Assembly: GCA_036172245.1 (NCBI GenBank)
Contig: JAYWIR010000001.1
Coordinates: forward strand, 1,736,001-1,800,000
Origin: Raillietiella orientalis
Taxonomy: Eukaryota
Direction: 5' to 3'
DNA: 64,000 nucleotides
Shown: positions 1-57,104 of the stretch, one piece after another
Layout of the letters: the number at the start of each line of letters is the position of its first letter
Position numbering within the stretch: position 1 is the stretch's first letter
Program-made: the position numbers and the translations under genes
Notes under the pieces: model-generated
Databases searched by the model: none
What the model was told of the DNA's origin: nothing
Seen by the model: only the letters and a program-made list of their open reading frames with translations

Positions 1-3000
1 CGTGGAGGTGGCGGAGCGTTTCCAAGACTGCCGCGCTGCCGTTGCGTGGCAGCGAGCCGACGACCGCTCGGAGGGCTGCGGGCTCGCCACGGGGTCGAAG
101 GCGACCTCACCCGGACGGATTTCGTCCCCCTTCTCGTCCCCTCAGTTTCTCCTGTGCCGAAGGACGGCCCGGGAAGTTCAAGCAGCCGTCCCAGGCGACG
201 ATGCGGTGCTCCCGCAGGTTTCCCGCGGCGCCGAATGCTGGCGCTGCCTCCGACGCAGTGGCCGCTGCAGGGTCGCGCGTATGTCTTCGCCGCGGCACTT
301 GCTGTTGGGGCGAGGAGCGCGGCCGGTCCCGGTAGCCAGCAGGTCTTCTTCCGAGCATCCCTGCAACGGTGCTATGACTTTTCCCTTCTTTCGCTTCTCT
401 CCGCGTCGTGGCTCGCGGACGGGCGGGAACGCGCTGCGTCGCATTGCTTCGCGTGCGCCGAAAACGCACTTCCCGCGTCCGCTGCGCGGTTGCCACGACT
501 GCGACCTTCCCAGGGCGCCTTCTCCCGCTCCGATCCTCCCTGAAAAGGGACGCCGCCGCGTCCGCCAAGTGCATCCGGGAAAATGCGTATCCGCGGCCTA
601 TTAGCAAGGATGCCCGCCCACTCAGCGGACGGGGACGCAGGAGAGCTAGCGCCCCCGTCGGATCATCCCAGGACCAACGTCCACCAAAGCGCCGCCTCTT
701 GTGCTGGCGCCCGTAGGACAGCTCCACCGTCAAACGGGCGTCCATAGTGAGGCAGCGCCGCCACAGTCGCCGTAAGACCGTCCACGGACAAGGAAGCCCC
801 ACCCCTCCTCTCCCCCGTTGCGCCTGCCGTTTGCGACCAGACGGGCGCTCCTTGAGCCGCGACCTCCCTCTTTCACGGCGTGCCGTCGCGCTTCCTGTCA
901 CGTGACCTGTCCCGCGCGGGTTTCGCCGGCGTCGCCTGCGAATCGAGGGCCGCCTCGCCCGCAGCGGGCGGGTTCCGGGCACTACGAGCGGCCGCCCGTT
1001 GCCCCGCGCCACCGGCGACGCGGAGCCGCAGCTGAGGAACGGCCGGCACGGAAGCGTGCGCGAACGAGCGCCGCGAAACCGTCGCGCATCCCAGGAGGCA
1101 AATGCTCTTTCGCTCCCACCCCACGGCTCTCGGAAACGGTCCCCGGCGACCACCACCATACGCTTCCGGGTCGCTCCACGCTCTTCTCGCAAGGATGGCA
1201 CATCGCCGACGCCGACCGCCTGCGACCGCGGCATCCGCAAGGGTGACGCGAGCCGCACGCCCGAGACGCGCCTTTTCAGTTCGCCTCTCTCGGTGGACAA
1301 GGCAAGGGAAGCGCGGCGTACCCTGACGGTGGAGACCCGAGGTCGCGCCGGAAGTTTCCACCTTGGCGGGGAGCGCACCTCCGCCTCCGGCTCGTCCAGC
1401 GCCATCGGCGCCCATCCCTTCCTGGGTGCGCTTCCGGGCCAGAGAGACCTGCCGGTGAGGAGCGTCGCCCGCATTCACCGACACCCTCGCGGCCAGCAGG
1501 GGAACCGCGCATGCGCGACCCATCCCCGTACGGCTGGCACCCCTCTTCACCCACCGCATCATTGGAACCGGTGTACCGGAGACGCCCACCCGCCTGCGAG
1601 GCTTGCTGCTGCTGGCGGTCGCCACGCGGAGCTCCTCGCAGCCATGCACTTCCCTCTCGCACGAATTCCGCAACGAGAAACGCGGAAGGAAACGCCGCGG
1701 GCTGCGCCACCGGAGCTCTCGGCGCCAGTCGACGGAGTCTCCGCCCTCCCACCGAGCACCCGGATGCCGCGGCTCCGCTCCTGCGCGGCCTCCGGGATGG
1801 AGAATGGCGGCGGACGGTGCTCCTGCGCGCTGCGACGACGACCGGCAAACGAGCGAGTCAACGACCCGTCTCCACGGCAACCGCGGATTCCTACGAGGCC
1901 GTCGCGCCTCAGGGGAGCCATCTCGATCCGCGCGCGTCTCGCCGCAAGGATCGCGGCAAAACTGCAGCAACCACCCACGCGCAGTCGGGGCGCTCCGGAT
2001 GCCTCCGACGCTGCAGACGAACGGCGCCACCTACCGCCACGTGCCTCTCGGTGACCGCCACCTCGGCGTTCGAAAGTCGAAGACGCCGCGGAGAGGCGGG
2101 AACGGGAACGCCAGGGACAGCGGCGATCGCCATCTCTTCTTGAGCACCGCGCAGCCGCACCGACGCCGCATTTTGCGCAAAGAGGACTGACGCGCGAAAC
2201 CAAGCACAGGTGGCGGCGGCGGTCGGGAAACTCTGCCGTACTTCAGCAGCGCCTTGTCCCTCCGTGCAGCACCGGGCTCGGGCTGCGACCCGTAGCTCGA
2301 AAGTGTTGGGGGGCGCAAGGCAAATGCCCGCAGAAGGCGGCCAGCACGGCGCCGAAAAGAGGAAGGTGGTCCGAGACCTCGGGCCACCACCAGCAGCCCG
2401 CCAGCGAGAGCAAGGGGGACCGAGCACCGAGGCGCGAGAGAAGCGGACGCCAGCACCGGAAGGCGGAGGCGCCGACCGACGTCCGCGGAGGAGCGAGCGA
2501 GCGACAGGCAGGTGCCGGGACGGGAAAAGGGGACGACGGCGCCGCCAAGCGGGTTGCCGAGCAGCGTCCCAGGGCGCGCGGGACCAGCAGGGAAAGCGCT
2601 GCGGTGACTCGTGGAGCTGCAGTAGCGGGACGCGAAGGGAGGCGGTACGCAAGGAATCGGTTCCCGGGACGACGACTTTGCGTTCGACGGACCGTCTCCG
2701 GAGGAAGGGGAAACGGGCGCGCTCCCGCACCCATGCGCGGGAGCACGGAGCAGAAGAGGAGCACCACTCCAGCATCACCTCTTTCCTGCAGCAGTCATCC
2801 ATCCAACAAGGCCACCAACAACGAGAAAGACAAGCGGGACGGAGGTGGAAGAAAGGAGGCAGCGATCGGAGAGTCTGGACCTCTGCGCAGGGTTGGGAAT
2901 GCCGCAAGCGGGAAAGACACGGGCGGAAGCGAGTCGAAAGTCGGTTGCAGGCCAGTTCCCGAGAGCCAGCTACGCGCCACTTCTTTCCGGAAGAAGGCGC

Positions 3001-3790
3001 AGCCGACCACTCTGCAGAGCACCGGGGAGCTCGCCTCCGTCGTCCTGGTGACGCGCGATCGGTGGGAGGGAAGGGTCGCAGGGTGGCGACGTGTCTCTCG
3101 GCTCGGTTGTTCGGCTGCAAGAGCCTCGATTCCTTGGGCCCGCCGCAAGGCGACCCCACGCGCGTGGCTGCTGGAGCAGCAGCGCCTCGAGGCGGAAACC
3201 AAGGCGCCACCCGAGATGACGTGCGTTCGCCAGCGCACGGACAGCGCAGCAAGGGACGTGCGGTCCGAGACCGCCGCTCCCTGAGCGCTACAGCGACAGC
3301 TTGCGGCCGCCTCCCGCGTCGACCAAGGACGACTCGAGCAGGTCGGATGGATTCGGGGAAAAGCGGACGGACCTTTCCGGCCCTCCTCTGAGAAGAGTCC
3401 CGAAGGGAAGCCCTGAGAAACGCGTGCCGCTAAGGCAGCAGCAGAGCGTGGCTCGTCTCCGCGCGCGCACCAACGTCCAGCCCCTCGCCCGTTGGCCTTC
3501 CGTAACGGAAGGAGCGAGGCTGCCGGCCGAAGGTGTGCATCGGCAATCCGAAGGAGCCTGCTCCATGGTGCCGGCGCCGGGTTGCGAACGGAACTCCGGG
3601 ACGGGCCGGGGAGCTGTGCTGCGGAAGGCGAGCGTCACGTCGGATGTCTTGGGAACGGGGCGGGAGGACAGGACGTTCCGGGAATGGGTCCGTAGTCGGG
3701 GAAAGCGCGCCGGGACCCGCCAGGCGTGCGGTCAGCGGTCGCGGCCGGGCGGGTTCGTAGCGGAAGATGCGTGCGGGGGAGGGGAGGCTG
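1..3790 (+). repeat. Inverted duplication IR1, left arm (open-ended at window edge)
   Basis: Position x mirrors 15976-x. ORF translations in all frames match those of 12186-15975 on the opposite strand. Only one substitution seen (3776 vs 12200). Homology ends at about 3790/12186. Confidence 0.97.
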
Positions 3791-3849
3791 TGATGTAGGA
3801 ACTCAGCTGATCGTTTTCTCTGTGTCTTCAACTGCTGAGGAAGGCGATT

Positions 3850-4150
3850 CGGTCTGTTGGGACTTCTCACGGGAAGGATGAGAATGATGGGGAAGGGAAT
3901 GTTCCCGTACAAAGGCAGGAAGAACGCGGAGATTTTTTTGGAAGGCAGCGATGTCATTTCTGATGTCATTTTCTTCATTTCTGTCATTTTCTGTCATTTC
4001 GGGTAACGAAAATGCATCAGTGTGCTTTGATGCCTGGGTTCCAGGCAAATTTACTTCGGAAAGGTGTGGGGCGCGGTGGTCACTCTCCCTGTCGCAGTCG
4101 AGACGCTTCACTAAGTTAAATCCACCCGCCTCAATGCTGCGTTTCCAGGT
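3850..4150 (-). mobile_element. Possible degenerate L1/Tx1 ORF2 fragment (endonuclease C-terminus and linker)
   Basis: Minus-strand peptides KRLDCDRESDHRA (resembles APE SRLD...SDH) and KKISAFFLPLYG (resembles the FY..LY linker motif). Short and frameshifted. Confidence 0.3.
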
Positions 4151-7089
4151 CGGCGGTAGTTCTTCCGACTATCTTCAGCGAATCCGTGAGGGTCGGTGGA
4201 TCCCAGGGTTTGAGTAGCAAACCAGGGAGGCTGGGAAGGAGCGATTCCCCCAGGAAGGGGGACTGACCACCTAAGTATGCGCGCGGACACGCAGCGAGAC
4301 TGCCACCGCCTTTCGGCCGAAACTCATCCCGTTTAAGAGGAGCTCAGGTGGCGAACGGACAGTGTCTGGACCGCGCAGCCGAGGCAGCTTTCTTTCTGAA
4401 AGGTAGCCGGCGAGGCAGGCGCGATCTGCTGGAATTGGCAGTCCAGATGCATACGAAGATCCGCGGAGGTAGGCGGTTCGAGGATTTGGAGGTGGGCAAC
4501 CGAGGATTAGCCGCATCCGAAGACACCGGGATTACAAGAGGGAGGGGCGGTCTCCATCTCCGCAACTTCGGTTAGCGGACCACGGCGGTGCGAGGACGCC
4601 CTTCCGCTCAGTCTCCCACCCCGCGCGAAGGACGCAGCCTTTGTGGCGGCGATACCGTCCCTGAGGAGGTGCCGCTGCCTTCCTCAGGCGACCAACCGAA
4701 GGCAGGTCGGGTTGGAAGTCCTCCGACGTGCCTCGTGGGAGGGGAGGAGGCGGAGCTGAAACGCCTGGCGTCGACCGGGATAGAAAGAAGCAGCAGTCAT
4801 CGGCGCGAGGGCTGCAGAGGAGGACTGAAGCACTGACGGCTACTTCCTGCTGACGAAGAAGCGGAGCGAAAAAGTCCCGGGAACGGTCCGAAGCGCCCGC
4901 AAGAAGCGGACGTGAAAAACGGAAGACGGGGGACTGGCGTCGCCGCTGATGCCAATCCTGGAAGTTGAAGGACCGGGAAATGAGAAGAGAGGGAAGGCGG
5001 AAAGAGGGGCATTCATTGCACCCGGTTGCCATGCCGTCAGGGGCACAGCGGGGCGACCGCGCGCAGGCGCTGCGAGGAGCACTCTGAGAGAACGCGGGCG
5101 CGAGCTGCTCATCCGCAGGGAAGGCTCCGCGGGCGGGACCGCGGAGGTACGGTCGTCGGCACCGGCCGAAGCGGACGAGCGGCGGTCCTCCCGAAGGACA
5201 ACGCGCGGACGAACGGGGAGGTCTCGCACATGCGCGCCGGCGCAAGAGCGAGGAGCTCCCGCCTTCCTCAGCTCCGCAACCTCCTGTTGCGTTGCAGCCT
5301 CGAGATCCGCTTCCTGGCGTGGTCCGCGGCGAGACCCGAGGCTGCAGGAGTTGGGAGGTCTTTCGATCCAGGCAGGAGCAGATGGAAAGCAACGGTCGGC
5401 AGAAGAGCAAGGCGAACACGAAGGGCGAGGAGTACGTAAGGTTCCAGGGTACGCGGTACCCGTGCCCGAGGCATTCCTCGTCATCTTCCTCCGGTCTTCT
5501 AAGGATGCGAAGGGACCCAGAAGAGCAGGACTCCGCGCCGCCAGCACCTGGAGCTCAGGACAGCGAAAGTCGCGACTGTGCAGCAGAGAGGACGGGCCAA
5601 GGGTGGCGCCCGTCGGAGGGAACCCACGGGCCTTTGGCTGCTGATCTTTTCCGGTCTCTCGCCCGAACTGTCGGCCGCGGTCGTCGCTTCACTCGAACGG
5701 AGCCGCTGCCACGTTTGCGATGGAGTCGAGGTCGACTCTATGAAAAAGGAAGCACCGGTAGACGCCCCTGGAGCGTAGTGGTCGCCTTGCCCCCGTTGTC
5801 GACTCCTCGTCGCTTCGCTGCTCTCTTTGGCGCTCTTGCGAAACGCACTGCGATACTGAGCGGCAGCCGCGCACCCCCGGTGCTTTCTGGCGATCCCGCG
5901 ACTTCCTTCCCCAAGCTCGTGGGGCTTCCGACCGGAGTCGCACCCGCTTCTACGGGAGAGGCTCTTCGACAATGTGGCTTGGACGTCGTCGGGTCCGCGA
6001 AGGGACGCTGGCAGCGCGCGACCGCGTCGGCGGGACTCCTGGACCGCTCCCCGGAATCCCATTTCCAGGTGAGCTCGTTAGCTTGTCTCCTGACCTGCGC
6101 GTCCTTCCCTCCTTCCGGACTTTCGGGAAACGCCACCGCGCGTTGCGCTCCGTGCTTGAAGTTCGCCTTCCGGCCGAGGTGGCGTCTCCTGCTGGCGCGA
6201 CGCGTGCCGCGGGTAGATGTTGGCGGCGACGAATCCGAGGTCAGCACCGCGCGGAACGCCCTCCTTTCTCCTCCGCGCGCCCGGCTTCGGGTCTCTTCTG
6301 GAAACGCGGCTGGCACAGGCGCGCTCATGCGGTTTGTGACGTCACCTTCGCCTCAACCCTGGCTTCCGCTGTACAGCGTTCGTTGCAAGGAAGCGGACGC
6401 GAGAGCCACGTCTGCACTGGAAAGGCGCCTGGCCGTGGCCCGCGAGCCCGTTTCCTCGAAAATGGCGACCGCGAGCGAGGAGACCCGTGCGGAGACCCAC
6501 CGCGCCAACGCCGGATGCTCCGCAAGTGGCACACGGATGCGTGGCGCGCTGCTCGTCCTTCGGGCGGAGACCCGACTTCTCGGAACGCGGTCGGCCGTGG
6601 GGCGTCGGAGGCAAATGCTCCGAGACCTCTTTCGGAGCTCGCAAGTGTCCGCCAGGGCGCTCCCGCCGAATCTGCCGCTTAGAAAATCAGCAATAGGGGG
6701 CGGTGGTGCGCACGCGTTCGGACTGAGTGGCTCAGCGAGTCGAATGAATGGGCGGTGGCGGTGCACAGGAAAGTGAAACGCGCCCTCGCGAGCGATCGAT
6801 TTGGCTGCTGCTGTTTACTGCTCTTTGGATTCGACCTGCGTATGTTGGATGTGACCTGTAGACAACGGATATCCGGCAATAGAGTGGCATGGTCCACCGG
6901 TCGTGGAGCGAAACGCCGCCTGCGACCTTTCGTGTTGTTCGGATCATCTGCATCACCCTGAACCAAGAACGGAGCCCGCTGATGTTCTTTTGCTTGATGA
7001 GATGGAACACCCGAGATGGTATTAAACCACCTCGGTTGCGCCGGGGCGTTTATGCAGCAGAACTGAACAAGCCATCTGGAAACTGAGTT

Positions 7090-7800: not shown

Positions 7801-8917
7801 CTTGTTTTGACTGCTGTTCCAAGCCAAGAGTGTGCTCATGCCGATCACACAGGTTGGTGGCGCCTTTGTGTTCTTTGTATACACCGCTGGAAGTTCGGAA
7901 TCATTGCGGATGGAGGAAGAAGCTGCAGCATCTTTGGTGCACGCGACGATGTGGAATCATCTGCTCTGGCCGCAGTGCCGCAATTTGTACCTGGATGGGT
8001 AGCCATTCCTGGAAATAGTTCCGGGATCAGCGTTGGAGGTACAATTTAAACATCGTAGCTTTTCGATTACATTGGTGCTGCATTCGTTTCCTTCTTGAAT
8101 GACCGAATCGGGGATTGAATGGGTACATAATTGATAGTTATAAGAAAAGGGTGGAGCAAGCTTACATCTCACAGGAAGTTTGGTCTCCCTCTTGGCTCTT
8201 TGGAATTCGGTACAAACAAACGTCTTGCTTTCCCCCGAAAGCGTGTTTTCCTGATAGAAACTGTTGTTCCTGTCTTCTTCGAAGTTCCCTTTGAGGAAAT
8301 GTTTCCAACTTTTAATGAAGCACGATGACACGTGACGTTAACTTGCAAATAATTGAATCCGTATTGCAGGGGTCATTCCAATAACTTTGTGCATTCCGAA
8401 TGAGGGGATACGACAGACAGAAATTCATGTGACTGGAGCTCCTGATGACTTCACGTTGCTTGCTGCTCGCAGATAGAACACAGAGCATGAGGAGCGGCAC
8501 GTGTGCCACCTGGTTCTGCAGGAGTTGAGCAGCCTGTCGAAATCTCCTTTTCGCAAGACAAGCGCGGACCCTCCTGATCCCCTTTAGAGACTTCCGAGGG
8601 CTTTCCAGAACTCAGCAAACTGCGCGTTTCTGGTGCTCATTTAGAAATGCCTGCCGACGGCACTGGGGACGACTCTTCGACCTCTCATTCCATCACATAC
8701 AACCAGCTAGCAGTTAGCCCTCTCCTCAGATGCTTCTGGGTGTCTACCCAAGCAACCTATTTCTACTCTAAAGGTGTCATCAATGGACCAAAGGAAGTAC
8801 CATTAGGTTCGCAGTGGCAGATCGGACCTCCATTCAGAAATCACAGCTTATTTTCCATAGTTCCAATTTTTCCTCAAGAAATGCTCGGAGTCCACTCTGT
8901 CATAGCTCAGCTCTGGT

Positions 8918-9669
8918 GTCCGCGTTGGCGGCGGTGTGGCTGCGTTCTCCACTCGTGGCAGGAAACGTTGCGGATTCGAATCCTTCACGGGGAAGGATCG
9001 ACGCCGAGAAATGACGGGTGCGTCGTGGGTTTCCAGTTCCTCTGGCAGGATGCCTCTGGTTGGCCTCGGTTGGCTTCGGGTACGGCACCGGTGGAACCGA
9101 ATGCCTCCGTTGACCGGCCTGGACTGGAAGTTGACCTTCCGGATGATTCAAGGACGCCCTCGGGGTTCCACTCCTGTTGGGGGAAGGGAGCCCCTCTCCC
9201 CCTCCGGCAAGGATCCTCCATCGCCTACCATGAAGCTGGTTGATACCCGCTTCGGAGGTCGCCTCTCCAGGAGCGCTCTGTTCCCTCCGGCGAGCACCCT
9301 TCACAGACATTGGGAAGCGTCCCTTTAGGGTCCTCTTCAGAGGAGGAAAGCAGGAGCAGTTCCCTCCAGAGAAGATATTTCAGGAACGGATCATTTTCGG
9401 ATTTCCTTAGGAAAAGAAACGAAGAGCGGAACCCTCCGAAAAGAATGAGGAAAAGGTTCCCTCCAGAGACGACCAGGGCAAGGGTTCCCTCCCAAGCGTG
9501 AGAGAAACGGAATCCTTCTCCTGGAGCCCTTCCTGGATTCATAGGGTGGTCTCCTCCCTGGGTGCCCCCTATCTTGAAGAATACACGCACCCTCGGGTGG
9601 CGCGGAAGATGCCAAAGAGCTTCGTGACCACTTCCCCCTAAGGAGGTGAGAGGTTATTCAGCAACACTA
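8918..9669 (+). mobile_element. Long tRNA-headed SINE-like element, copy A (older, no poly(A) tail)
   Basis: Head GTCCGCG...GCGGATTCGAATCC (B-box-like). Flanked by direct repeat AGCTCTGGT(G) at 8909-8918 and 9670-9679. Body aligns with 43082-44187 and 30009-30680 (e.g. GCACCCTCGGGTGGCG, AAGAGCTTCGTGA, TTCCTGGATTCA). Confidence 0.8.
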
Positions 9670-10899
9670 AGCTCTGGTGCTAGACTCAACATCTGCGCTC
9701 CCTGGTGCCTTTACTACCAAAGCACTGGTAGTGGAGACGTCAAGCACTAAGGCACCTGACACCACTGTTATAGGTTTCCGATTGACGGAGTCTTCTTTCT
9801 GCCTTCCTTGGTCACGTGCTAGTCTGCCACCTTGAGACACCCATGCTAGTCCTGAGGGCAGAGGGGAAAGAGTCCGGAAGGATTCGTAGAGCGGGGTGCG
9901 ATGTGTTGTTCATATGGGTGTTCGTCCGCACTTGCGGAATTGGGGGGCAACCAGGGAGGTGGTGAGTTTCTCGACACGACCGCTTCTGCGAGGCTGAAGA
10001 AGGAGATGGCAGCTGCTCTCTGCCGCCCGCCCACTGAGGCACCGGAATGACTGAAAGTGAACTTTGGAGTCTCCCCACCCTTCCTCCCGTCACCGGGGCA
10101 TGGGAGAGAGGTTTCCCGATTGAGCTTCCGGTGTGACGGGACTCGGTTCTCACTGGGAATTCTCGTTCCCGGAGATGGGCTGCTCCTTCCCCAGAGCTGG
10201 CGGGAACAGATGTGGAACTGCGTCGCGAGGCGGGGACAGGACTCCCCGTTTGCTTACAGGCGTCCAGCGGGAGTTTCGTGGGAACCTGCGAAGCACTAAA
10301 ATCCGGAGAGCACTTCTTCTCCAGGGGAGTTCCACATAAACAACGGTTCAGGAGGAGAAAGCAGCGCCACCAGGAAAGGTCGATGTGTTTACATGAAAAA
10401 CCTGGAAGTTGATTCGGGGGACTGCAATTACTGAAACGTGAGCATTATTGAGCACAAGAACGCTCTCTTCTTTGCTTGCATTGATTGGGACACCGCGTGG
10501 TCGGGAATGATCACTACGGGAACTTTATTGCCCCGAGTGTTTACTGTCTCTGCAAGGGCCTCTGAGGCGAATGCAGCGCAGGAAAGCCCAACGGCTGCTC
10601 CGGGCGGCTCCGGAAAGATCACGTGATCACCACTCCGCAGCGGCGTGCGACCGGGGAGCATGCAAGCAGCGGTGCATGGCCTCACAAGCTTCGGCAAAAC
10701 TCTGGGTCGAGAGCTGTGGGGGGCTCTTCAGTCTGCTCTGCTGCGGAGGGCGCGATCCACGCATCCCGAATCTTCCTTGTTTCCTGGGCTCGCCGGACCC
10801 CGGTGAGCAGACGGGAAGAGAGTCTCGGACGCTCCGGCGCGCGCGCGTCTTTGTGAAGTGAAGGCTGTGCACCCTTGCTGCGGAAAGCCTCTGACTAAG

Positions 10900-12185
10900 G
10901 GGACAGCAGTCGGATCACTCTCCCTCAAGAGGCGGTAAAGATGGAGGATACTTGCTGTCCAGCATGGGGACACCGCAGGTCACCGTAGCCCAATTCGCAC
11001 CTTTTTTCTTGTCTCCATTTTCGATGAGCGGTTGAACGCGAATGCGAAGAGTGGAGGTGGCAGATGCGGCCATCTTCCAGTTCCATAAGCTCCTTCTGTG
11101 CCTGGAAATAATAATCATAATAAGCTGCTTCCGGTTGTTGCAACACCGTGCGTGGCGAAAAGAGTCATCGCAAATCTGACATGGCGACACATGCCGGATC
11201 CTGTTGGAGCTCAGTGGGCGGATTTCTTCCCCCTGTGCGTGAGAATTGCAAGCGGGTAGACGAGCAGATCGAAAGCATCCGAACCCTTCCTGCATCCTCC
11301 GTCTCTCCTTTCGTTCCGGATTCCTCGAGACCCATGGAAGACTTCCGCGATGCCAAAGTTGAACAGGTCGAGGACAGGTTTGCAAGAGCTCCGGAAGAAG
11401 TTAACTCCCGCGAGAAAGTCCGTTGCCGAGCGAGCGATAGCAACGTCCAACAAATCAGCACAATGATGAGCGACCTCGTTTGGCCCGCAAGAAAGCTTTT
11501 CTGGGTGAGCATCAGGAGAAAGAAAGGTGAAAGGCGAGTGACACCCCGAACGAGAGAAGAAAGGCACAACGCGCATCGCGACGTGCTCTCGAAGGAAAGC
11601 AGTCTGACCAGTGGTGAGGCCACCTTCCCCTGGTGCGCTTTTGATCTTTTTAGTGCTCCTCCAGTTTCGCGCCGTCCACCTCATTTGCTTGTGGACCCAC
11701 ATGGATCATTAGCGCATCGATACAGAAGCACCAGATTGAACGAAATGCCATCGCTGAGAAAGGAAGTCGTTTAGAAAGGACGCGCAGACAGCAGCGGTGA
11801 TACTGAATGGAAAGAGGAGAGCTCCGGGAAACCAAGAATCCACGATGCAGGCGCGCTACTCATTAACTGCAAGACCGCCTTGGCAGATGCACTCGATGCA
11901 AACGATGCAGCCGAGACACGATGGAACGAATTTGCTGACGCAGGGCCGTTTATACAACGGAAGACATCTCAGCTTGTTGGACTGGAGTGCATTCTGCTGA
12001 ATTACAAGCTTTTCTATTCGTCTGAAGCTTTAATCCAACAACTCCCACAAAGATCTTCTCTCGCTCCCTTTGCGACCAACCCTGAAGCTACCATGTCTTG
12101 AGGAGTGCGCACTTGGTACCAAAAAAGGATCGCTACAGCCGGCAAACCTTACGCACACCCTTCCGGTCCTACAGAGTTCACTTCG
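10900..12185 (-). mobile_element. Degenerate L1/Tx1-like ORF2, 3' half
   Basis: Minus-strand peptides in L1 order across frameshifts: KSAPGEGGL (post-RT P...GGL motif), VSPCQICDDSFRH (Cys knuckle), IIISRHRRSLWNWK (terminal ..IW motif). Confidence 0.45.
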
Positions 12186-15100
12186 CAGCCTCCCCTCCCT
12201 CGCACGCATCTTCCGCTACGAACCCGCCCGGCCGCGACCGCTGACCGCACGCCTGGCGGGTCCCGGCGCGCTTTCCCCGACTACGGACCCATTCCCGGAA
12301 CGTCCTGTCCTCCCGCCCCGTTCCCAAGACATCCGACGTGACGCTCGCCTTCCGCAGCACAGCTCCCCGGCCCGTCCCGGAGTTCCGTTCGCAACCCGGC
12401 GCCGGCACCATGGAGCAGGCTCCTTCGGATTGCCGATGCACACCTTCGGCCGGCAGCCTCGCTCCTTCCGTTACGGAAGGCCAACGGGCGAGGGGCTGGA
12501 CGTTGGTGCGCGCGCGGAGACGAGCCACGCTCTGCTGCTGCCTTAGCGGCACGCGTTTCTCAGGGCTTCCCTTCGGGACTCTTCTCAGAGGAGGGCCGGA
12601 AAGGTCCGTCCGCTTTTCCCCGAATCCATCCGACCTGCTCGAGTCGTCCTTGGTCGACGCGGGAGGCGGCCGCAAGCTGTCGCTGTAGCGCTCAGGGAGC
12701 GGCGGTCTCGGACCGCACGTCCCTTGCTGCGCTGTCCGTGCGCTGGCGAACGCACGTCATCTCGGGTGGCGCCTTGGTTTCCGCCTCGAGGCGCTGCTGC
12801 TCCAGCAGCCACGCGCGTGGGGTCGCCTTGCGGCGGGCCCAAGGAATCGAGGCTCTTGCAGCCGAACAACCGAGCCGAGAGACACGTCGCCACCCTGCGA
12901 CCCTTCCCTCCCACCGATCGCGCGTCACCAGGACGACGGAGGCGAGCTCCCCGGTGCTCTGCAGAGTGGTCGGCTGCGCCTTCTTCCGGAAAGAAGTGGC
13001 GCGTAGCTGGCTCTCGGGAACTGGCCTGCAACCGACTTTCGACTCGCTTCCGCCCGTGTCTTTCCCGCTTGCGGCATTCCCAACCCTGCGCAGAGGTCCA
13101 GACTCTCCGATCGCTGCCTCCTTTCTTCCACCTCCGTCCCGCTTGTCTTTCTCGTTGTTGGTGGCCTTGTTGGATGGATGACTGCTGCAGGAAAGAGGTG
13201 ATGCTGGAGTGGTGCTCCTCTTCTGCTCCGTGCTCCCGCGCATGGGTGCGGGAGCGCGCCCGTTTCCCCTTCCTCCGGAGACGGTCCGTCGAACGCAAAG
13301 TCGTCGTCCCGGGAACCGATTCCTTGCGTACCGCCTCCCTTCGCGTCCCGCTACTGCAGCTCCACGAGTCACCGCAGCGCTTTCCCTGCTGGTCCCGCGC
13401 GCCCTGGGACGCTGCTCGGCAACCCGCTTGGCGGCGCCGTCGTCCCCTTTTCCCGTCCCGGCACCTGCCTGTCGCTCGCTCGCTCCTCCGCGGACGTCGG
13501 TCGGCGCCTCCGCCTTCCGGTGCTGGCGTCCGCTTCTCTCGCGCCTCGGTGCTCGGTCCCCCTTGCTCTCGCTGGCGGGCTGCTGGTGGTGGCCCGAGGT
13601 CTCGGACCACCTTCCTCTTTTCGGCGCCGTGCTGGCCGCCTTCTGCGGGCATTTGCCTTGCGCCCCCCAACACTTTCGAGCTACGGGTCGCAGCCCGAGC
13701 CCGGTGCTGCACGGAGGGACAAGGCGCTGCTGAAGTACGGCAGAGTTTCCCGACCGCCGCCGCCACCTGTGCTTGGTTTCGCGCGTCAGTCCTCTTTGCG
13801 CAAAATGCGGCGTCGGTGCGGCTGCGCGGTGCTCAAGAAGAGATGGCGATCGCCGCTGTCCCTGGCGTTCCCGTTCCCGCCTCTCCGCGGCGTCTTCGAC
13901 TTTCGAACGCCGAGGTGGCGGTCACCGAGAGGCACGTGGCGGTAGGTGGCGCCGTTCGTCTGCAGCGTCGGAGGCATCCGGAGCGCCCCGACTGCGCGTG
14001 GGTGGTTGCTGCAGTTTTGCCGCGATCCTTGCGGCGAGACGCGCGCGGATCGAGATGGCTCCCCTGAGGCGCGACGGCCTCGTAGGAATCCGCGGTTGCC
14101 GTGGAGACGGGTCGTTGACTCGCTCGTTTGCCGGTCGTCGTCGCAGCGCGCAGGAGCACCGTCCGCCGCCATTCTCCATCCCGGAGGCCGCGCAGGAGCG
14201 GAGCCGCGGCATCCGGGTGCTCGGTGGGAGGGCGGAGACTCCGTCGACTGGCGCCGAGAGCTCCGGTGGCGCAGCCCGCGGCGTTTCCTTCCGCGTTTCT
14301 CGTTGCGGAATTCGTGCGAGAGGGAAGTGCATGGCTGCGAGGAGCTCCGCGTGGCGACCGCCAGCAGCAGCAAGCCTCGCAGGCGGGTGGGCGTCTCCGG
14401 TACACCGGTTCCAATGATGCGGTGGGTGAAGAGGGGTGCCAGCCGTACGGGGATGGGTCGCGCATGCGCGGTTCCCCTGCTGGCCGCGAGGGTGTCGGTG
14501 AATGCGGGCGACGCTCCTCACCGGCAGGTCTCTCTGGCCCGGAAGCGCACCCAGGAAGGGATGGGCGCCGATGGCGCTGGACGAGCCGGAGGCGGAGGTG
14601 CGCTCCCCGCCAAGGTGGAAACTTCCGGCGCGACCTCGGGTCTCCACCGTCAGGGTACGCCGCGCTTCCCTTGCCTTGTCCACCGAGAGAGGCGAACTGA
14701 AAAGGCGCGTCTCGGGCGTGCGGCTCGCGTCACCCTTGCGGATGCCGCGGTCGCAGGCGGTCGGCGTCGGCGATGTGCCATCCTTGCGAGAAGAGCGTGG
14801 AGCGACCCGGAAGCGTATGGTGGTGGTCGCCGGGGACCGTTTCCGAGAGCCGTGGGGTGGGAGCGAAAGAGCATTTGCCTCCTGGGATGCGCGACGGTTT
14901 CGCGGCGCTCGTTCGCGCACGCTTCCGTGCCGGCCGTTCCTCAGCTGCGGCTCCGCGTCGCCGGTGGCGCGGGGCAACGGGCGGCCGCTCGTAGTGCCCG
15001 GAACCCGCCCGCTGCGGGCGAGGCGGCCCTCGATTCGCAGGCGACGCCGGCGAAACCCGCGCGGGACAGGTCACGTGACAGGAAGCGCGACGGCACGCCG

Positions 15101-15975
15101 TGAAAGAGGGAGGTCGCGGCTCAAGGAGCGCCCGTCTGGTCGCAAACGGCAGGCGCAACGGGGGAGAGGAGGGGTGGGGCTTCCTTGTCCGTGGACGGTC
15201 TTACGGCGACTGTGGCGGCGCTGCCTCACTATGGACGCCCGTTTGACGGTGGAGCTGTCCTACGGGCGCCAGCACAAGAGGCGGCGCTTTGGTGGACGTT
15301 GGTCCTGGGATGATCCGACGGGGGCGCTAGCTCTCCTGCGTCCCCGTCCGCTGAGTGGGCGGGCATCCTTGCTAATAGGCCGCGGATACGCATTTTCCCG
15401 GATGCACTTGGCGGACGCGGCGGCGTCCCTTTTCAGGGAGGATCGGAGCGGGAGAAGGCGCCCTGGGAAGGTCGCAGTCGTGGCAACCGCGCAGCGGACG
15501 CGGGAAGTGCGTTTTCGGCGCACGCGAAGCAATGCGACGCAGCGCGTTCCCGCCCGTCCGCGAGCCACGACGCGGAGAGAAGCGAAAGAAGGGAAAAGTC
15601 ATAGCACCGTTGCAGGGATGCTCGGAAGAAGACCTGCTGGCTACCGGGACCGGCCGCGCTCCTCGCCCCAACAGCAAGTGCCGCGGCGAAGACATACGCG
15701 CGACCCTGCAGCGGCCACTGCGTCGGAGGCAGCGCCAGCATTCGGCGCCGCGGGAAACCTGCGGGAGCACCGCATCGTCGCCTGGGACGGCTGCTTGAAC
15801 TTCCCGGGCCGTCCTTCGGCACAGGAGAAACTGAGGGGACGAGAAGGGGGACGAAATCCGTCCGGGTGAGGTCGCCTTCGACCCCGTGGCGAGCCCGCAG
15901 CCCTCCGAGCGGTCGTCGGCTCGCTGCCACGCAACGGCAGCGCGGCAGTCTTGGAAACGCTCCGCCACCTCCACG
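12186..15975 (-). repeat. Inverted duplication IR1, right arm (partner of 1-3790)
   Basis: Reverse complement of 1-3790. GC-rich sequence continues without a break to about 22300, so the arm may be longer. Confidence 0.97.
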
Positions 15976-18900
15976 CGAATCGGAGACGACGCTGGCGCGC
16001 GTCGCGTGCAGCAGATCTCCCAGGAGACAAGCGGGGTAGAGTGACGGGCGGTCCGGGAGGGCAGCCGTCGCCGGCCGGTCTGGCGGCGAACTCTGGACCA
16101 CGGGAAGCGGTGGAGGTGGAGGAGTCGAGGTTGCCGGGCGCCGACACGATCTCGGAAGGCCTTCGGGAAGAGGGCGCGCCCTTATTCGACCCGTGGCGAG
16201 CCAAGTGCGCGCGCACGTCGGCGATCCCGCCGTGGACGCCGAACGGAAGCGTGGCGCTGGAAACGCGCGGGAAAGGGGAGGGAGCGGGTGGGGGTGGGGG
16301 TGGGGGCGCGCAGCAGGGACTTGCCCGCCGGAGCTGCGCCGCCAACGCGGTCTCCTTTCGCGGCCGGAGCCCCGGTTCGTGACCTTCGCCGTGATCGGGT
16401 GCTCCGGGCGATCCTTCGCCGACGTAGCGTATGGGGTCCGTGACCTTCGCGCTCCGGGGGGCGTGTAAGCCTCCCAGAGTCGCAGGAACACCTGCAACTC
16501 TGGAGAACTTCCGCGACGGCGTCTTTCCACCCTTCCCTTCTTGCGTCCCGCTCGTTCCGCATCCACGGAGGCTGGCGGTGCGATCCGGACAACGTCGCCA
16601 TGTGCGACCGCGCAGCTACCAGTGGACCGTGCAATCCTCTCGAAGGTCCCCTCGTCCCCCTTCTCGCGTGCGTGAGCCTTCCTCGTTGACGCTGCCTACG
16701 ACGGGGCGGGCGTCACCACGGCGCGGGCAAGATGGCTACCTCGGAAAGTGGCGGCGCACGGGTCTCTCGACGAAGAAGCACGGTTGCGGCGTTCTCGAGA
16801 AACTGTGCGCCGCCCTGTTCGGGCGTGTTGGCGCGAAACGGGACGCTCCCGTCGCCGGTCCTTTGGTAGGATCGTCCTTGCAGAAGGACGAAGCAGATCT
16901 CGTGGACGCGTGAAGTGCAAACTGCTGCACGAGAGAAGCTGCGTCACGCGGGAGGCGCGGCGCGTCCCTGCGCAGGCCGCTGCGGACGCGGACGCGGCAG
17001 GTGTGGCGTCCACCGATGGTCCCTTCCCGGTTTGTCCACGGTCTTCGGATGCAGCATCCTCAATGTACCCTCACCGACGGCGTCGTATCGCTTGCGCGCG
17101 CGCGGGGCGAGGGCCGTCCCTTCTAGGAGACGCCCGCCGGCAGCAAGAGCGATTCGCCCGTGTTGGGAACGTACAGGCCGCTCCTGCGGCGTTGACCCTT
17201 CCCCGAACAAACGGGTAGAAGGACGACGCACGTCTTCCTGGGAGTGGAAGTCTCCGTAGGGCGGTGAGGTCGGAGAGGCGCTGGCTGCGGTCGGGACGGA
17301 GGTCGCCGTCCGGCAGCGAGCGTAGTCGCGCTTGGTGGATGGTCGGGCGAGGGACGCGAGGTGGGAGATGCAGGCGAGGCTGCCGGCTTTCCTTTCCGCG
17401 AACGGACGCGGTGGGCTACCTCGAGGTCGGACTTCCTCCTCCCCTTCCTCGGCGCCGGGTCGGCCGGCGGTCCACGCATGTGGCATGCGAGGAGAGGTGA
17501 GGAAGGGGAACGTCCCCTGCGAGGTTGGCGCGTGACTTCCAGTAGGAACCTGAGGTCCACCCCGCGTAGGACCGTGGCGGAGAGACGCCCCTGGATCCCG
17601 TCAGTGTTGCCGTGGGGCGGCGAAAGGCCCCGCCGCCGAGCTGTCCGCGGTTCCCGGTCGGGGAGGCAGTCCTCGCGGCATCGACTTCATCCCGGCGCGG
17701 AAGGGTAGCGTCGCTTCCTCTTTGGAACCCCCAGGATGGAAGGGCGTGACCTCGCCGCGCGCCGACTAGCGCGAGTTGGCACCGCGCTTCCGTTCCCGTC
17801 GAGTAGCCCCGGCAAGAGGAGGAGGAGGCTTCGGCGCTCCTCCGCGAAGCGGCCGCCGGGAGATTTCCCGCGCGGGATGAAAGCGCAGCCTCTCGTTGCG
17901 CGCCCTCTCCGTGGATATCGGCTGGGTGGGCGGCAGCCCGATGTTCCCAGGGGCGCGTGGGCGCTCCTTTTCGCTGAGCGGTGGCACAGCGAAGGCGCAG
18001 GACCCGAGTACCATGGGCGTCGGCGGATCCGTGCGCCGCAACGCCCCGTCCGGAGCGGAGTCGGCGCTCCGCTGCCGGCGGCGATGCGATGTCCGCGGGG
18101 GGAGGCCAACGTGGCAGTCTCTCCGGGAGCCTTGCAAGGACGAAGAGCTCTCCGGGATGCGCACGTCGCGCGTCCAGCTCGCACCTGCGGGCCACCGCTG
18201 CTTCTCGATTGGTGGGAGTTTCCAGGGCGCGCGCGGTGAATCCTAGCTCCCGGCGCGCCGCGACTGGACCCGGGATGCCTCGCACCGACCTACGACCAAA
18301 TGCCTCGCGTTTTTTCTCCACGGACCTTCGTTTCCTGGTAGGTCGAGGTTGGTCTGACAGCCGTGGTGGCGCTGTCGACCCTTCTGCTCCGCTCATGTCG
18401 GAAGGAGGGGTTGGTGGTGGGTGCCGACGCGCCCTTCGGCCGCCCTTTGAGGACCGCGGCCTCTTGCTTTTCTTCGTTGGCACCGTGGGGCGTTGGTGGC
18501 CCAGCGGATATCTCCGCCTTGCGTGGCGGAAATGGCGACCGAGGGCGTAGCGCGCAACGTAAGGACGAGTTGGGCGAAGTGCGCTGCGTGCGTGCGTACG
18601 GCGGGGGCGCCGCCGTCGAGCACGAGCACCAGAGCGGAGCTGCAGCGTTACCCTGCTCGGCGCTGAAGACGTCCCGGGAGACGGCGGGCGCGCTCCGCCG
18701 GCCGCCAACTGGACGGAGGTATCGGGCATGCGCAGCAGCATTGCTGTTGGATGGGGACGGCAGGAAGTGAGTGAGGCTGCAGGGGTGGGGCGGGTGTGAG
18801 GTGTCGGGAAGGAGGCTTGGAGTGCAGCGAGCCTGTCGACTTTTGGTCAACGGTCCTCGGAGGGGACCCTCCGTTCCGGAGGAGAGGGTGGGGGATCGCC

Positions 18901-30008: not shown

Positions 30009-30680
30009 TTTTTTTTTCTTTTTCTTTTTTTTTTCCGCATTGCTAATTGCTGAAGAACCGTTCGCGCGCTTAGGGAGGACTCACGAAGCTCTTCAGCACC
30101 GTCCACGCCACCCGAGGGTGCGCGTAACTCTTCAGGTTACAGGGGCAACGCCACGCCACAGGAATCCAGGAACGGTTCCTGTGAATCCAGGAAGGCTTCG
30201 GTGGAAGAAATCCGTTCTGTTTATGCTTGAGAGCTCCCTTTATGCGAGCCGGACCCTCGCCCTGGTCGTCTCGCAAGGAAACCCCGAAGGGAAGCTGTTC
30301 CTCATTGTGTGCGGAGGGCTTCCCGGACGAAGCCGCTCCTCGCTTCTTCTCCGAAAGCAACCCGGAAAGGATTCGGTCCTTGAATTTCTTCTCTGGAGGG
30401 AACCCGCGAGGGAACTGCTCCTTGTTCCCTCCTCTGGGGAGAACCCCAAAGGGAGCAGCGCGCTTTTTACACCCTGGAGAGGCGACCCCCGAAGCGGGTA
30501 GCAACCAGCTTCACGGTGCGCGGTAGGTCTCTCCGCGAGGCGGAGGACGGAAGGCAGCGGAGGGGAACCCCGAAAAAAGGCGCCCTTGATTCCTCCGGAA
30601 GGAACCCGGAAAGTCAAATTCCAGTCCCGGGAGGGGAAGGGGGGGGGGGCATCCGTCTTCCACCAGTGCCACCAGTTCCA
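30009..30680 (-). mobile_element. Long SINE-like element, copy C (5'-truncated, A-rich tail); mirrored at about 42755-43081 plus 44199-44543
   Basis: Aligns with the bodies of copies A and B and ends in an A-rich run (T-run 30009-30034 on plus). No tRNA head found. Confidence 0.7.
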
Positions 30681-30951: not shown

Positions 30952-30972
30952 GTCGTCGTCGTCGTCGTCGTC
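30952..30972. repeat. (GTC)7 microsatellite, mirrored as (GAC)n at about 42462-42482
   Basis: Read directly from the sequence. Confidence 0.9.
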
Positions 30973-39597: not shown

Positions 39598-40465
<868 letters not shown>

Positions 40466-41156: not shown

Positions 41157-44100
41157 ACAAAAAAAAAACTCCAAAACCTGCTCTCCGACCTGCATCCCAC
41201 ACAGATGCAAGGAAAGTGCTGCGTGCATCCAGCCAATCCGTCCTCCCAGGTGCAGCGGCTGTCGGACGCGACGCAAATACTCATCGAAGTCAGCGAGAAC
41301 GGATTGCATGTTTCTTGTCTCACCACGAGTGCATCCCGAGCGGTCCCGGAGCCACGTCGCTCGGAGCTGCAAACAAGTTGCCGCAGTAGCGGATCGTTCA
41401 AGGCAGCTCCCCAGCAGGCCCCGGTCCCACAGAACCGCCGATCCCGGAGTCGAGGTCCCAGCGAGCAGCCTGCGGGAGCGCGTGCTGCACGCGCGCTCTC
41501 CGACCTCCATCAGCACGCACGCAGCCACCGTCAGCATCGGTGCGCAAAGCGACCGCCGACCGCCAGACACTCGCGCATCAAAGCACAGCCGGCGCTGCCG
41601 AAGGCGTGTTCGCCAGGTGCACGTGTTCCAGGGATTCCGGGTGGGTGCGAGCATCGCCTTGGGGTGCTGCTCCTCCCTCGCCTGCAGGGATGGGGCACGC
41701 GCTGGACGGCCCGTGGCGCGGCCGCGAGCCGGAGAAGGCCTTCGGTCCACGACTCGCGCGTCTTCCCGTCAAGAAATGTGCCCCCCGGAGAGCACGCACC
41801 GGACGGCCAAGGCCTGCCGTCGCCTTGGTTCCGGAGCACCGGTGGGCACGTTGCGCTTCCGCCGTGTCGCGCGGGCACCTAGCAACGGGCGATTGCACAC
41901 ATGCGGGCGCGAGTGTTTGCCAACAATGGCGCGATCGGCGGTCTACGAGTGGCAGCCCACGTGCACAGCTACGTACAGACGAATGCCAACGATGGTGCTC
42001 TCTGCCCCTGCCCGCCGGCCATGGCAGGGCGCCATCCGATGGCGAGGGGGTGATCTTGGGTGCCGGCTCCGGGGGGCTGCGTTCGTACCGGCGCGTGCCA
42101 GCAGCCTCGCAAGAGCGCCCTCGCAAGCGTGCCGAACGGTTGCGCGGTCGGTGCTGTCCGACGCTGCTACGACCTGCCGCCTTCCGAGCAGCGCCCGGCG
42201 ACTCGCTCCGTGGACCGAGGAGGCGGTCGAGGCTTCCACAATGCTCCCAGCCAGCCGACGGCTCACGGGAATCGGCTCTCTGCACGACTGCACCGACGCA
42301 GTCCCGCCACCCGATTTCCGCACAGCGTCGACGACGTCGCCTGCCCAACCTGCATCCACCCGCACGGACGGTGATGCGCTGCTCCCTCATCCTCATCTTG
42401 GCGTTCGCACTCCCGCGATTCGACTTGGACCGCGCGCGCCCTTCCCCCTCTGCGGCGGCAAGACGACGACGACGACGACGACATCCCGCGTCGAAACCAC
42501 CGCGACCGCACTCGGTCGTCACGGATGATTGGGCGATGGGCAGCGGTCACTGCGTCATCTCATTCCTCTGAGGAGACCCGGCGCGGAGGAGGCTCTCCTC
42601 CCAGAAGAGACGGTGGATGGATCCTTCCTCCCTGCCTTCGTCCACGATCTCCGCTCGCCGTCCTCCTCCGACGACGAACCGGCGCACTTCCGTCTCGCAC
42701 CTTCTTCCCGGAAAGGCACGCGACCGCTCCGCTTCCCTCCATTCTCCTCTCGGTGGAACTGGTGGCACTGGTGGAAGACGGATGCCCCCCCCCCCTTCCC
42801 CCTCCCGGGACTGGAATTTGACTTTCCGGGTTCCTTCCGGAGGAATCAAGGGCGCCTTTTTTCGGGGTTCCCCTCCGCTGCCTTCCGTCCTCCGCCTCGC
42901 GGAGAGACCTACCGCGCACCGTGAAGCTGGTTGCTACCCGCTTCGGGGGTCGCCTCTCCAGGGTGTAAAAAGCGCGCTGCTCCCTTTGGGGTTCTCCCCA
43001 GAGGAGGGAACAAGGAGCAGTTCCCTCGCGGGTTCCCTCCAGAGAAGAAATTCAAGGACCGAATCCTTTCCGGGTTGCTTTTTTTTTTTTCTTTTTTTTT
43101 TTTAAGGCCAGTAGTGACCTCCACGAGGAGATCGTTACTATTGGCCTAGGATGATGGAAATCCTTGGGTCCTTCTTTTTTCTTCTGTCTTCGCTGTTTTT
43201 CTTTCAGTTTTTTTTTTTTTTAAGAGTTTTTTTTTTTTTTTGGTTTGCTAAGTACCTCAGAGCCGGTCGCGTGCCTCGCGGCGCACGTGGCTCTTTTTAA
43301 ACATTAACACACTGTTTGGTTCCCACGCCCCTCCGCCCGCGGCAACCCGCAGGGGGGCGTGTAATTTCTTCAGTGTAATTCTTCAGGATAGGGGGCACCC
43401 CGGGATGGGGTCCGCCCTATGAATCCAGGAAGGGCTCGGAGTCCGTTCCTCTCACGCTCGGGGAGGGATCCCCCCCGGACGGGGGGGATCGCACCTCCCA
43501 CCCTGGTTGTCTCCGAAGGGGAAGCCCGAAGGGAATCTCCTTCCTCATTCTCTCCGGAGGGACACCCCCTGGGAGGGGGGTGGTCCTCTCCATTTTTTCT
43601 TCTCCGAAGAGAACCCGGAAAGGATCTGCTTGTAGGAATTTCTTCTCCAGAGGGAACCCGCAAGGGAACTGCCCCTTTATTCACTCCTCTGAAGACAACC
43701 CCGAAGGGACGCTTCCGAAACTCAGAAGGGGCGCTGCAGCTTCCCGCAGGGAATCGCTCTCGCTTGCTTCCTTGTGCACACTCTGTGAAGAGTCGACGAC
43801 TCGGAGGGGCCCCCCCGCAACAGGGGGAATCCGCTCCTTTGAACTGGAGAGGTGTCCGTGAGGGCTCCTGCTCCATCTTGAAACCGGAGGCGGTCCCTCT
43901 GGTGAGCGGGTCCGCTCTCCATTGCACGACCGGAGGGGGAACTCCCAACTCCTTGATTCCTGGGAGGACCCGAAGGTCGACTCCCATTGTTCCGGCCTTC
44001 ATCGGGAGCCTCCGGCTCATCCACCGCCGTGGCCACGCCCGAATGTCTCGGCCAACCAGCGCCATCTTGCAGGAGAAACTCGTAACCCAACGACGCAGTG

Positions 44101-45333
44101 GCGTCAGTTTCTGCCGAAGTATTCGAACCCGCGACGCATGGTACCACACGCGGAAGCCTTAACCACAAGGCCTCCGACGCGGGCTTTCGGGTTGCTTTCG
44201 GAGAAGAAGCGAGGAGCGGCTTCGTCCGGGAAGCCCTCCGCACACAATGAGGAACAGCTTCCCTTCGGGGTTTCCTTGCGAGACGACCAGGGCGAGGGTC
44301 CGGCTCGCATAAAGGGAGCTCTCAAGCATAAACAGAACGGATTTCTTCCACCGAAGCCTTCCTGGATTCACAGGAACCGTTCCTGGATTCCTGTGGCGTG
44401 GCGTTGCCCCTGTAACCTGAAGAGTTACGCGCACCCTCGGGTGGCGTGGACGGTGCTGAAGAGCTTCGTGAGTCCTCCCTAAGCGCGCGAACGGTTCTTC
44501 AGCAATTAGCAATGCGGAAAAAAAAAAGAAAAAGAAAAAAAAACACAGGAAGGAAGGGAGAGAAAACAGAAAAACCCCAAAGGACCATCCGCGCTCGAGG
44601 AATCGCGGCCGTTGCCCGGGACGCTGCTACCATGGTAGCAGCGAGCAAGCGAGAAATGGCGGATACACTGGCAAAGTTGGGTTGGCCTGGAGAGTGGCGC
44701 CAACCGGGTCGTCGTGAAGAGGTGAGTGCAGGTGACTGGGGTATCGGCACGAGTCGGAAGCTGGTGGACCCGGGAGCGCTGCGCTCCGCTTGCGAGCCTT
44801 TTTTCGACGGGAACCGAGGAGCGGGCGAGGACGAGCGAGCCGGGCTTCGCTCCTCCCCCCCCCCCCCGGAGATGGGGGAAGATTTCTCGGAAGCTGCGCG
44901 GAACGCTCCTACAGGGCGGAAGAGGCACGCGTCTTCGAATTCGAGGTAGGTCGAACCTGCTGGAGCCGATCGGTCCCTGCGGCCGTCCGCCAACACTTGG
45001 CTGGCGCCACTCGTCTGACTTCGAACCTCGGTCGCAATCAGGTTCGCGCACTCTTCCCATGGGAGTCCGAGGCGCCGCGCGCGCGCGCCTAGTCCACGCG
45101 GTGCTTCGTTCTTCTCTCCACGAGTCGCCCCCCCCACGCACGCACGCGTTGTCGTCGATACCCGGTTGCTAGGACGGACGAGTAGCCTGCACCAGAGAGG
45201 GTCTCGGTGTGCGAAGGCGTCGCCCTCGGTTTGCTGCAAAGCGAGGAGGCTGCCTGGAAGCAACGAGAAGAGAAGACGCGTGTCGAGCCCTAGGCGTTGT
45301 CGAGTCACATGGGTTGCGAGCGTCGATCCTTCG
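41157..45333 (-). repeat. Inverted duplication IR2, right arm (contains 1.1-kb SINE insertion)
   Basis: Reverse complement of 29219-32282 plus 1117 extra bp (1106-bp element and 11-bp TSD). GC content changes abruptly at both ends. Confidence 0.97.
43082..44187 (-). mobile_element. Full-length long tRNA-derived SINE-like retroposon, copy B (young)
   Basis: TSD CGGGTTGCTTT at 43071-43081 and 44188-44198, with the empty site visible in the other arm (about 30354-30364). Head GCCCGCGTCGGAGGCCTTGTGGTTAAGGC...GCGGGTTCGAATAC carries A/B-box-like motifs. A 3' stem-loop (43106-43146) precedes the poly(A) tail. Confidence 0.9.
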
Positions 45334-57071: not shown

Positions 57072-57104
57072 ACAAAGCAAAAATAAAAATTTATAATTTC
57101 CGAA

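Follow-up and report, generated by a model that had tools for sequence, protein, structure and literature searches.

According to extracts of the SINEBase description, tRNA-derived SINEs consist of a head, a body whose origin is unknown, and a tail, and one listed family, the quasi-oligomeric SINE CHRS, carries a degenerate tandem motif of about 20 nt that recurs more than 10 times and in variable number (PMC3531059). For the RNAs of SINEs, loss of the tRNA fold and selection on structure were proposed earlier, for plant SB1 and as a general trend (Sun et al. 2007) (both as cited in an extract of PMC2408557), and RNA structure affects the jumping of Alu (extract of PMC12062377). SVA and LAVA, as portrayed in an extract of PMC4432496, are non-autonomous elements mobilised by L1; their central array of GC-rich units, 30 to 50 bp each, has been rearranged through microhomology from one subfamily to the next and, in LAVA, affects mobilisation. 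Finally, compensatory changes have been reported in the 3' stems that SINEs share with LINEs (extracts of PMC3747384 and PMC4824008).

Set against these excerpted accounts, the family described here resembles the tRNA-derived SINEs of SINEBase: its head holds A and B boxes, its body is non-coding, its tail is A-rich, and it has target-site duplications, subfamilies and a large number of copies. It differs in size, measuring 0.78 to 0.96 kb without the tail (about 1.1 kb when extended) while the 175 SINEBase families span 75 to 662 nt, an observed range rather than a formal criterion, which our consensuses of 764 to 963 nt exceed; it also differs in that its body is almost wholly an array of hairpin units. 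CHRS is a listed precedent for a tandem-motif SINE body and is likened here by description, with no homology implied; its motif is about 20 nt, whereas here the units are bulged hairpins of about 42 nt with co-evolving arms. As in SB1 and other SINE RNAs, the tRNA fold is predicted to have been given up for bulged stem-loops; however, there are three stem-loops in SB1 and two arms derived from 7SL in Alu, against 13 to 16 paralogous hairpins here, and our evidence is a contrast of master and private mutations within one genome. Among functional arrays of GC-rich units, SVA/LAVA comes nearest, but these are hominoid composites with an Alu-like 5' domain, whereas this family has a tRNA head, no T4 run and hairpin units, and as far as known the two are unrelated in sequence. 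The likeness to SINE/LINE 3' stem-loop pairs lies in a CCC-YYGY-GGG hairpin tip of an L1-like LINE that recurs in this SINE; in contrast to such pairs, no significant homology was seen between the SINE and LINE 3' ends compared, and the constraint covers the body and not just the tail. In a literature search mostly outside subscription journals, we found no description of this family or of any hairpin-array SINE.

Three copies were studied in the window, the whole stretch of 64,000 nt of Raillietiella orientalis DNA that was analysed. Copy A (8918..9669, forward strand) is a full-length old copy of SINE type belonging to subfamily O; its A-tail is gone, it covers positions 2-767 of the 768 positions of the family HMM, and it diverges from the O consensus by 18.8%. 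It is flanked on the same strand by target-site duplications at 8909..8918 and 9670..9679 (10 bp exact, 13 with one mismatch). A genome search found no close relative, the best matches being 65 to 75% alike over long stretches and the nearest 71% over 31-747. The tRNA-related head (8918..8990, forward) holds an A-box-like motif at about 8926-8939 and a B-box motif at 8972-8983, the latter read off the sequence by the box consensus. The body (9040..9665, forward) is a decayed array of bulged-hairpin units of about 42 nt and includes, all on the forward strand, the place of a 12-nt deletion between direct repeats (9356..9372), a hairpin unit with the stem ATAGG/CCTAT (9541..9572) and the YACGC/GCGYG hairpin (9584..9604), imperfect in A, whose tip is extended by a new 7-bp stem in subfamilies B1 and B2.

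Copies B and C were found by self-comparison of the window. Copy B (approximately 43082..44184, reverse strand) is a young long-form B1 copy of about 1.1 kb, flanked by an 11-bp target-site duplication (43071-43081 and 44188-44198); at its 3' end an extension of about 135 nt terminates in a hairpin and a short T run and is followed by the A-tail, and the copy has at least 39 other copies at 87 to 94% among the matches listed. Copy C (approximately 30025..30670, reverse strand) is a headless old O copy with an A-rich tail at about 30035-30008; it aligns to positions 164-785 of the O consensus with 21.8% divergence, and no close relative was found in the genome search. A near-identical duplicate of it lies at 42762..44505 on the forward strand, in two pieces (42762-43081 and 44185-44505) interrupted by the inserted copy B. 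Rfam, ARAGORN and Tandem Repeats Finder reported nothing over the element; in the window as a whole ARAGORN made no call and Rfam gave 0 matches at gathering score, and thus no known structured RNA of that collection.

The window also contains two long inverted duplications of 99.9% identity, 1-3804 with 12174-15975 and 29219-32275 with 41159-45333, their arms arranged around spacers of 8.4 to 8.9 kb. The spacer of the second holds a C2H2 zinc-finger frame (34885-36177), presumably of KLF type and in keeping with an animal genome, and copy B entered one of its arms after the duplicating event. The two structures could represent recent duplications, large inverted-repeat elements or assembly effects. 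In composition the window is a sharp mosaic in which blocks of about 30 to 40% GC adjoin blocks of 60 to 70% GC, as seen on comparing 22000-28000, 38000-41000 and 46000-60000 with 1-7000 and 12000-22000.

The family of copy A is a tRNA-headed SINE-type retroposon of unusual length (0.78 to 1.1 kb), and it has the properties of a tRNA-derived SINE by the SINEBase criteria of head, dispersal in many copies, retroposition marks and absence of a coding frame, with the observed length range excepted; transcription by Pol III and dependence on a LINE partner are putative. The B-box motif is present in all consensuses, and the head aligns end to end with genomic tRNAs, the best local match being Arg(CCT) with a score of 63; with runners-up at 61 and 60 there is no clear winner among the 45 distinct sequences compared, taken from 50 of the 62 listed genes. 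The head is predicted to refold into one long hairpin instead of a cloverleaf. Heads were present in 3 of 10 arbitrary 10-kb stretches, so that the family probably has thousands of copies, in agreement with the 5274 first-look candidates in the 210-Mb genome; an exact 20-mer matched 416 times. Young copies carry A-tails and target-site duplications of 9 to 20 bp that often begin A-rich, and such duplications were detected in 16 of 33 B1, 5 of 9 B2 and 4 of 39 O copies (2, 0 and 0 in controls). None of the seven consensuses contains a T4 run, while 28 of the 39 old copies carry one; the shuffle probability of this absence is 0.02 to 0.27 per consensus, the seven not being independent. Fifteen long-form copies end in T2 to T5 ahead of the A-tail. 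The same flank, rich in A and G and about 14 bases long or longer, borders the young copies L032, L033, L036 and L040, which suggests either that they inserted time and again into another repeat or that a 3' flank was carried along.

Removal of duplicates reduced 188 head matches to 176. Of these, 122 came close to full length, namely 43 O, 31 I and 48 B copies, and the tree is a ladder with I3 as a side branch. Seven consensuses were built from 114 of the 122 copies, leaving out four O copies by length, two L233 copies, L139 and L095. Mean divergence is 18.4% in O (39 copies, consensus of 786 nt), 14.9% in I1 (12 copies, 817 nt), 11.6% in I2 (8 copies, 793 nt), 8.2% in I3 (8 copies, 764 nt), 9.9% in B0 (only 5 copies, 894 nt), 5.2% in B1 (33 copies, including sublineages, 948 nt) and 1.5% in B2 (9 copies, 963 nt). 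The source elements thus lengthened along the ladder from about 0.78 to 0.96 kb, or to about 1.1 kb if we count an extra stretch of about 135 nt that 15 B copies carry at the 3' end. This extension ends in a hairpin (z -3.2), and we infer that it is 3' flank captured through Pol III read-through.

The first-pass annotation had described compensatory base changes and hairpin-tip indels among copies A, B and C. All the motifs it quoted were found in these copies, but three of its four examples are private decay of dead copies. For the 5' helix it had proposed a swap from C-G to T-A; the halves GTCCGCG (8918) and TGCGGAT (8969) in copy A and GCCCGCG (44184) and CGCGGGT (44133) in copy B are there, yet T-A occurs in copy A alone, the pair being C-G in 23 of 38 old copies, T-G in 4 and T-A in 1. 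In 19 of 21 consensus folds this helix is predicted with a probability no higher than 0.06, and a rival pairing with the segment just upstream is predicted at 0.91 to 1.0; at span 70 the helix reaches 0.65 in B1 and 0.47 in B2. In copy A the helix appeared when the first 130 nt were folded, and its predicted probability was 0.0 in the whole-copy ensemble. CpG decay was considered as the origin of the swap and rejected, since C>T changes occur at 0.127 at CpG and 0.138 elsewhere. The old copies show no CpG hypermutability family-wide, and at non-CpG sites C>T mildly exceeds G>A on the sense strand (0.138 versus 0.104).

Similarly, the replacement of ATAGG/CCTAT by ACAGG/CCTGT is real in copy C, but both halves had changed together in only 2 of 109 matched windows (C and L122). 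Six of these windows begin with ACA, plus one shifted by an insertion, and about 8 carry CCTGT; by a hand estimate, about 0.5 joint occurrences are expected by chance. In copy C, moreover, CCTGT is accompanied by a private 2-nt insertion and a local duplication. The clean presence or absence of 12 nt is a real gap as well, but it is flanked by two GTTCCCT direct repeats and occurs in no subfamily consensus; of 39 old copies examined, 27 could be scored and one of these has the gap (12 could not be scored), as does 1 of 33 B1 copies. The fourth example held up: the stems YACGC/GCGYG and AGAGC/GYTCT are present, imperfect in A, and their loops, described as differing greatly in length, lengthen along the subfamily ladder.

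Covariation among the old copies was assessed by permutation tests, and over 156 predicted pairs in 38 copies we observed 93 pair-keeping double changes versus 97.4 by permutation. Paired sites changed at 0.191 and unpaired sites at 0.175. The tree of the old copies is star-like, with terminal branches of 0.15 to 0.29, and the fold of copy A was no better than its own shuffles (z 0.38, 8 shuffles). There is no structural signal in dead copies, and what look like compensatory changes when two or three of them are compared are mostly due to chance. Independent variation of paired positions in a larger sample, which the annotation had named as evidence against structural selection, was thus found for the old copies; it was not found for the masters.

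The body of the element is made up of about 13 to 16 hairpin units of roughly 42 nt (in O, 10 by iterated profile and about 13 to 14 by eye; in B1, 16 by eye), and it grew through duplication of such a unit. Most units are predicted to fold as a bulged hairpin with a CCC/GGG tip. When arms were swapped between units, with unit centres placed by eye, the two arms of a unit paired better together than with the arms of other units (p 0.0007 for the 10 profile-defined O units, p 0.004 for the outer stems). Units only 61% alike keep a predicted mean fold of -15.0 kcal/mol, while neutral simulations of a real unit at matched divergence gave means of -8.5 to -12.1 kcal/mol. Along the ladder, one outer-stem pair went from A-U through G-U to G-C, a loop-closing pair went from U-G through U-A to C-G while its loop grew from 4 to 10 nt, and in two units both arms lengthened in matched fashion.

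For each master branch, the structure was taken from the older consensus and the substitutions leading to the next consensus were scored against it, the expectation being given by identical changes assigned at random to sites of matching base type. The 103 substitutions on the six branches broke 25 predicted pairs versus 40.9 expected, and 23 versus 37.6 with the head excluded; this latter depletion was unchanged under local shuffling in 20 or 40 nt or with site-mutability weights. Dropping the O-I1 branch, whose direction is unsure, left 15 versus 27.8 (p 0.0005). Taken singly, two of the six branches were significant (I2-I3, p 0.004, and B0-B1, p 0.046), and I1-I2 showed no depletion (4 versus 3.4). 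As a negative control, copies compared with their own consensus gave break ratios of 0.97 (O), 0.89 (I1), 1.01 (I2) and 0.95 (I3).

The B1 copies gave a lower ratio, 0.81, in a subfamily that contains sublineages, and this was resolved by splitting the derived variants of 84 B copies by frequency. Singletons broke 171 pairs versus 166.7 expected, variants shared by 2 to 3 copies 97 versus 96.4 and those shared by 4 to 7 copies 27 versus 29.1, whereas variants in at least 8 copies broke 3 versus 8.6 (p 0.001). This last class still gave 3 versus 7.4 without homopolymer runs (p 0.009) and 5 versus 11.4 at span 150. The 14 newly fetched B copies (from 20 stretches) pointed in the same direction on their own (2 versus 3.5, p 0.19); with I2 as outgroup, the class of at least 5 copies was not significant (p 0.07 and 0.19).

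The antisense fold was also depleted of breaks (24 versus 30.5, p 0.053, and 27 versus 39.6, p 0.002), as expected for palindromes; pair-keeping changes nonetheless favour the sense strand, with 16 versus 12 on the sense fold and 7 versus 14 on the antisense fold. Two-sided swaps were in no clear excess on adjacent branches (1 to 3 versus 0.5 to 0.8 expected, p 0.045 to 0.49), and end to end one of eight tests gave a p below 0.05. With the head excluded, master substitutions still broke 23 of the 39 pairs they changed, about six in ten, indicating that the constraint is moderate. A bias of the permutation nulls from consensus-building or alignment is conceivable. These comparisons of predicted structures suggest that the copying ancestors avoided pair-breaking changes and that RNA shape matters for jumping. 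The conclusion of the first-pass annotation, namely, that masters evolved under selection on RNA structure and not on a reading frame, is therefore supported by the master tests, although the three-copy examples on which it was built do not carry it.

We thus favor, with a probability of about 0.68, the reading that this is a long SINE whose source elements were filtered for a fold consisting of a row of hairpins and whose copies then decayed neutrally. A source copy would be transcribed by Pol III from its internal A and B boxes to the first T run, and a LINE reverse transcriptase that primes on the A-tail would then copy the RNA into new genomic sites, as the duplications and tails imply. 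Source elements succeeded one another in the ladder, lengthening as observed; judging from the statistics on predicted structures, only copies still folding into a row of short bulged hairpins went on to serve as source, with pair-breaking changes filtered out while loops and stem tips were free to grow or shrink. After insertion, copies such as A and C decay regardless of structure, as the tests on old copies show. Most likely, the fold would serve to hold a Pol III transcript of such great length in a compact and stable state and to let it join the LINE machinery.

The main remaining rivals are a mutational bias confined to reverse transcription and a constraint on sequence motifs. That no selection is involved, the hairpins being kept or perfected by the mutational process at retrotransposition (template switching or fold-back in reverse transcription, or loop-biased errors) and the pattern showing up only in lineages with many rounds behind them, is unlikely, even though several of the master changes double a self-complementary word or lengthen C and G runs in step, and copy C has a private duplication resembling fold-back. 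Indels speak partly for such a process. The annotation had likened the pattern to expansion segments and proposed to ask whether indels fall in loops, and master indels do touch hairpin loops more often than expected (36 of 111 versus 20.5), but private indels are enriched there too, 1.2- to 1.3-fold (170 of 488 versus 130 and 39 of 118 versus 32), so that part of the loop bias in master indels is mutational. Against this explanation, pair breakage by singletons of young copies is as frequent as under neutrality (ratio 0.99 to 1.03) and the old copies lack an excess of double changes (93 versus 97.4), and templated repair at the DNA level is thus not detectable; moreover, the signal consists mostly of missing single substitutions and not of templated multi-base events. 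Singletons are mostly post-insertion, which leaves room for a process confined to reverse transcription.

A constraint on primary sequence, each unit having a motif that binds protein or supports the promoter and falls in stems by coincidence, is improbable. It would account for one block of 80 nt that hardly changed between O and B2 (70 of 73 aligned bases unchanged) and for the finding that paired sites take fewer substitutions of all kinds (40 versus 50.7). However, units differ by about 40% and yet their own arms match better than the arms of others, pair-keeping changes are not depleted (16 versus 12), and the outer-stem pair that passed from A-U to G-C by way of G-U kept pairing while its sequence changed.

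It is very unlikely that the element is an ordinary SINE in decay, with hairpins that came about passively from a single palindromic minisatellite unit. This description does hold for the dead copies, with their star-like tree, absence of covariation and unremarkable fold of copy A (z 0.38), and many UUCG loops trace to the repeated unit; but it predicts that arms pair as well across units as within them and that master branches break pairs at the neutral rate, and both predictions fail. Finally, the idea of a remnant protein-coding repeat of 14-residue units under reading-frame constraint, prompted by the unit length of about 42 nt and by long stop-free frames in this GC-rich DNA, can be dismissed for the period spanned by the ladder, since only 22 of 111 consensus indels are multiples of three (89 are not) and three long frames tested over copies A, B and C have no Pfam match, as the annotation had anticipated in arguing against a reading frame.

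A search of the genome for reverse transcriptases listed at least 150 matches; of 20 loci fetched, 18 belong to one family, 77 to 97% alike where the reverse transcriptase stretch is comparable. A search with the endonuclease hit 4 loci, all from a single tandem family. For a related ORF2, which has its C-terminal motif and 3' hairpin in common with the family of 18, the best match is human L1 ORF2p, and its endonuclease matches solely L1-type chains. The A-rich starts of the duplications are compatible with the target preference of L1. An L1-type enzyme fits both these starts and the A-tails, and relaxed recognition of poly(A) has been described (extract of PMC3747384). No SINE-LINE tail homology was found in 25 comparisons of UTRs with consensuses covering 20 of the at least 150 reverse transcriptase loci, the two with a p below 0.05 being one A-run and one internal gapped match, and a profile search gave a best E of 0.93. 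By these comparisons the family is not a stringent-type SINE, in which the 3' 50 to 150 nt are homologous to a LINE 3' UTR.

An L1-like LINE has an open ORF2 of 1177 residues and occurs in head-to-tail arrays of about 5.5 kb (L257-L260; G000 C188, C51, C71), three of which run to contig ends, and many other reverse transcriptase matches lie about 5.6 kb apart; the arrays are possibly target-specific or located at chromosome ends. At one locus (L264:2288-2946) a LINE 3' end directly adjoins an old SINE copy in opposite orientation. The LINE 3' end carries a conserved bulged hairpin after an AATAAA motif (L261-L279; L257:6326-6360), and its tip, CCC-YYGY-GGG, shows a two-sided change between LINE families, in the L257 family. 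The same tip, noticed post hoc, is found in the most conserved unit and block of the SINE, once in O to I3, twice in B0 and B1 and three times in B2, against 0.03 to 0.07 in shuffles. It is conceivable, though we consider it doubtful, that the hairpin array is a multimerised mimic of the 3'-terminal stem-loop of the partner LINE, capturing the LINE protein by multivalent shape mimicry. If so, it would be the SINE body, and not a LINE-derived tail, that captures the LINE protein.

To our knowledge, what the bodies of SINEs do is largely open, and structural selection has so far been proposed between families and shown for Alu. The present family extends the size range of tRNA-headed SINEs past the 2012 catalogue and parallels the repeat arrays of SVA and LAVA in an unrelated setting. 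It represents a natural experiment in one genome, with seven age-ordered subfamilies and 13 to 16 paralogous hairpins, for which dead copies, probably numbering in the thousands, serve as neutral control, and the contrast between neutral private changes and constrained master changes gives a clean prediction for a retrotransposition assay.
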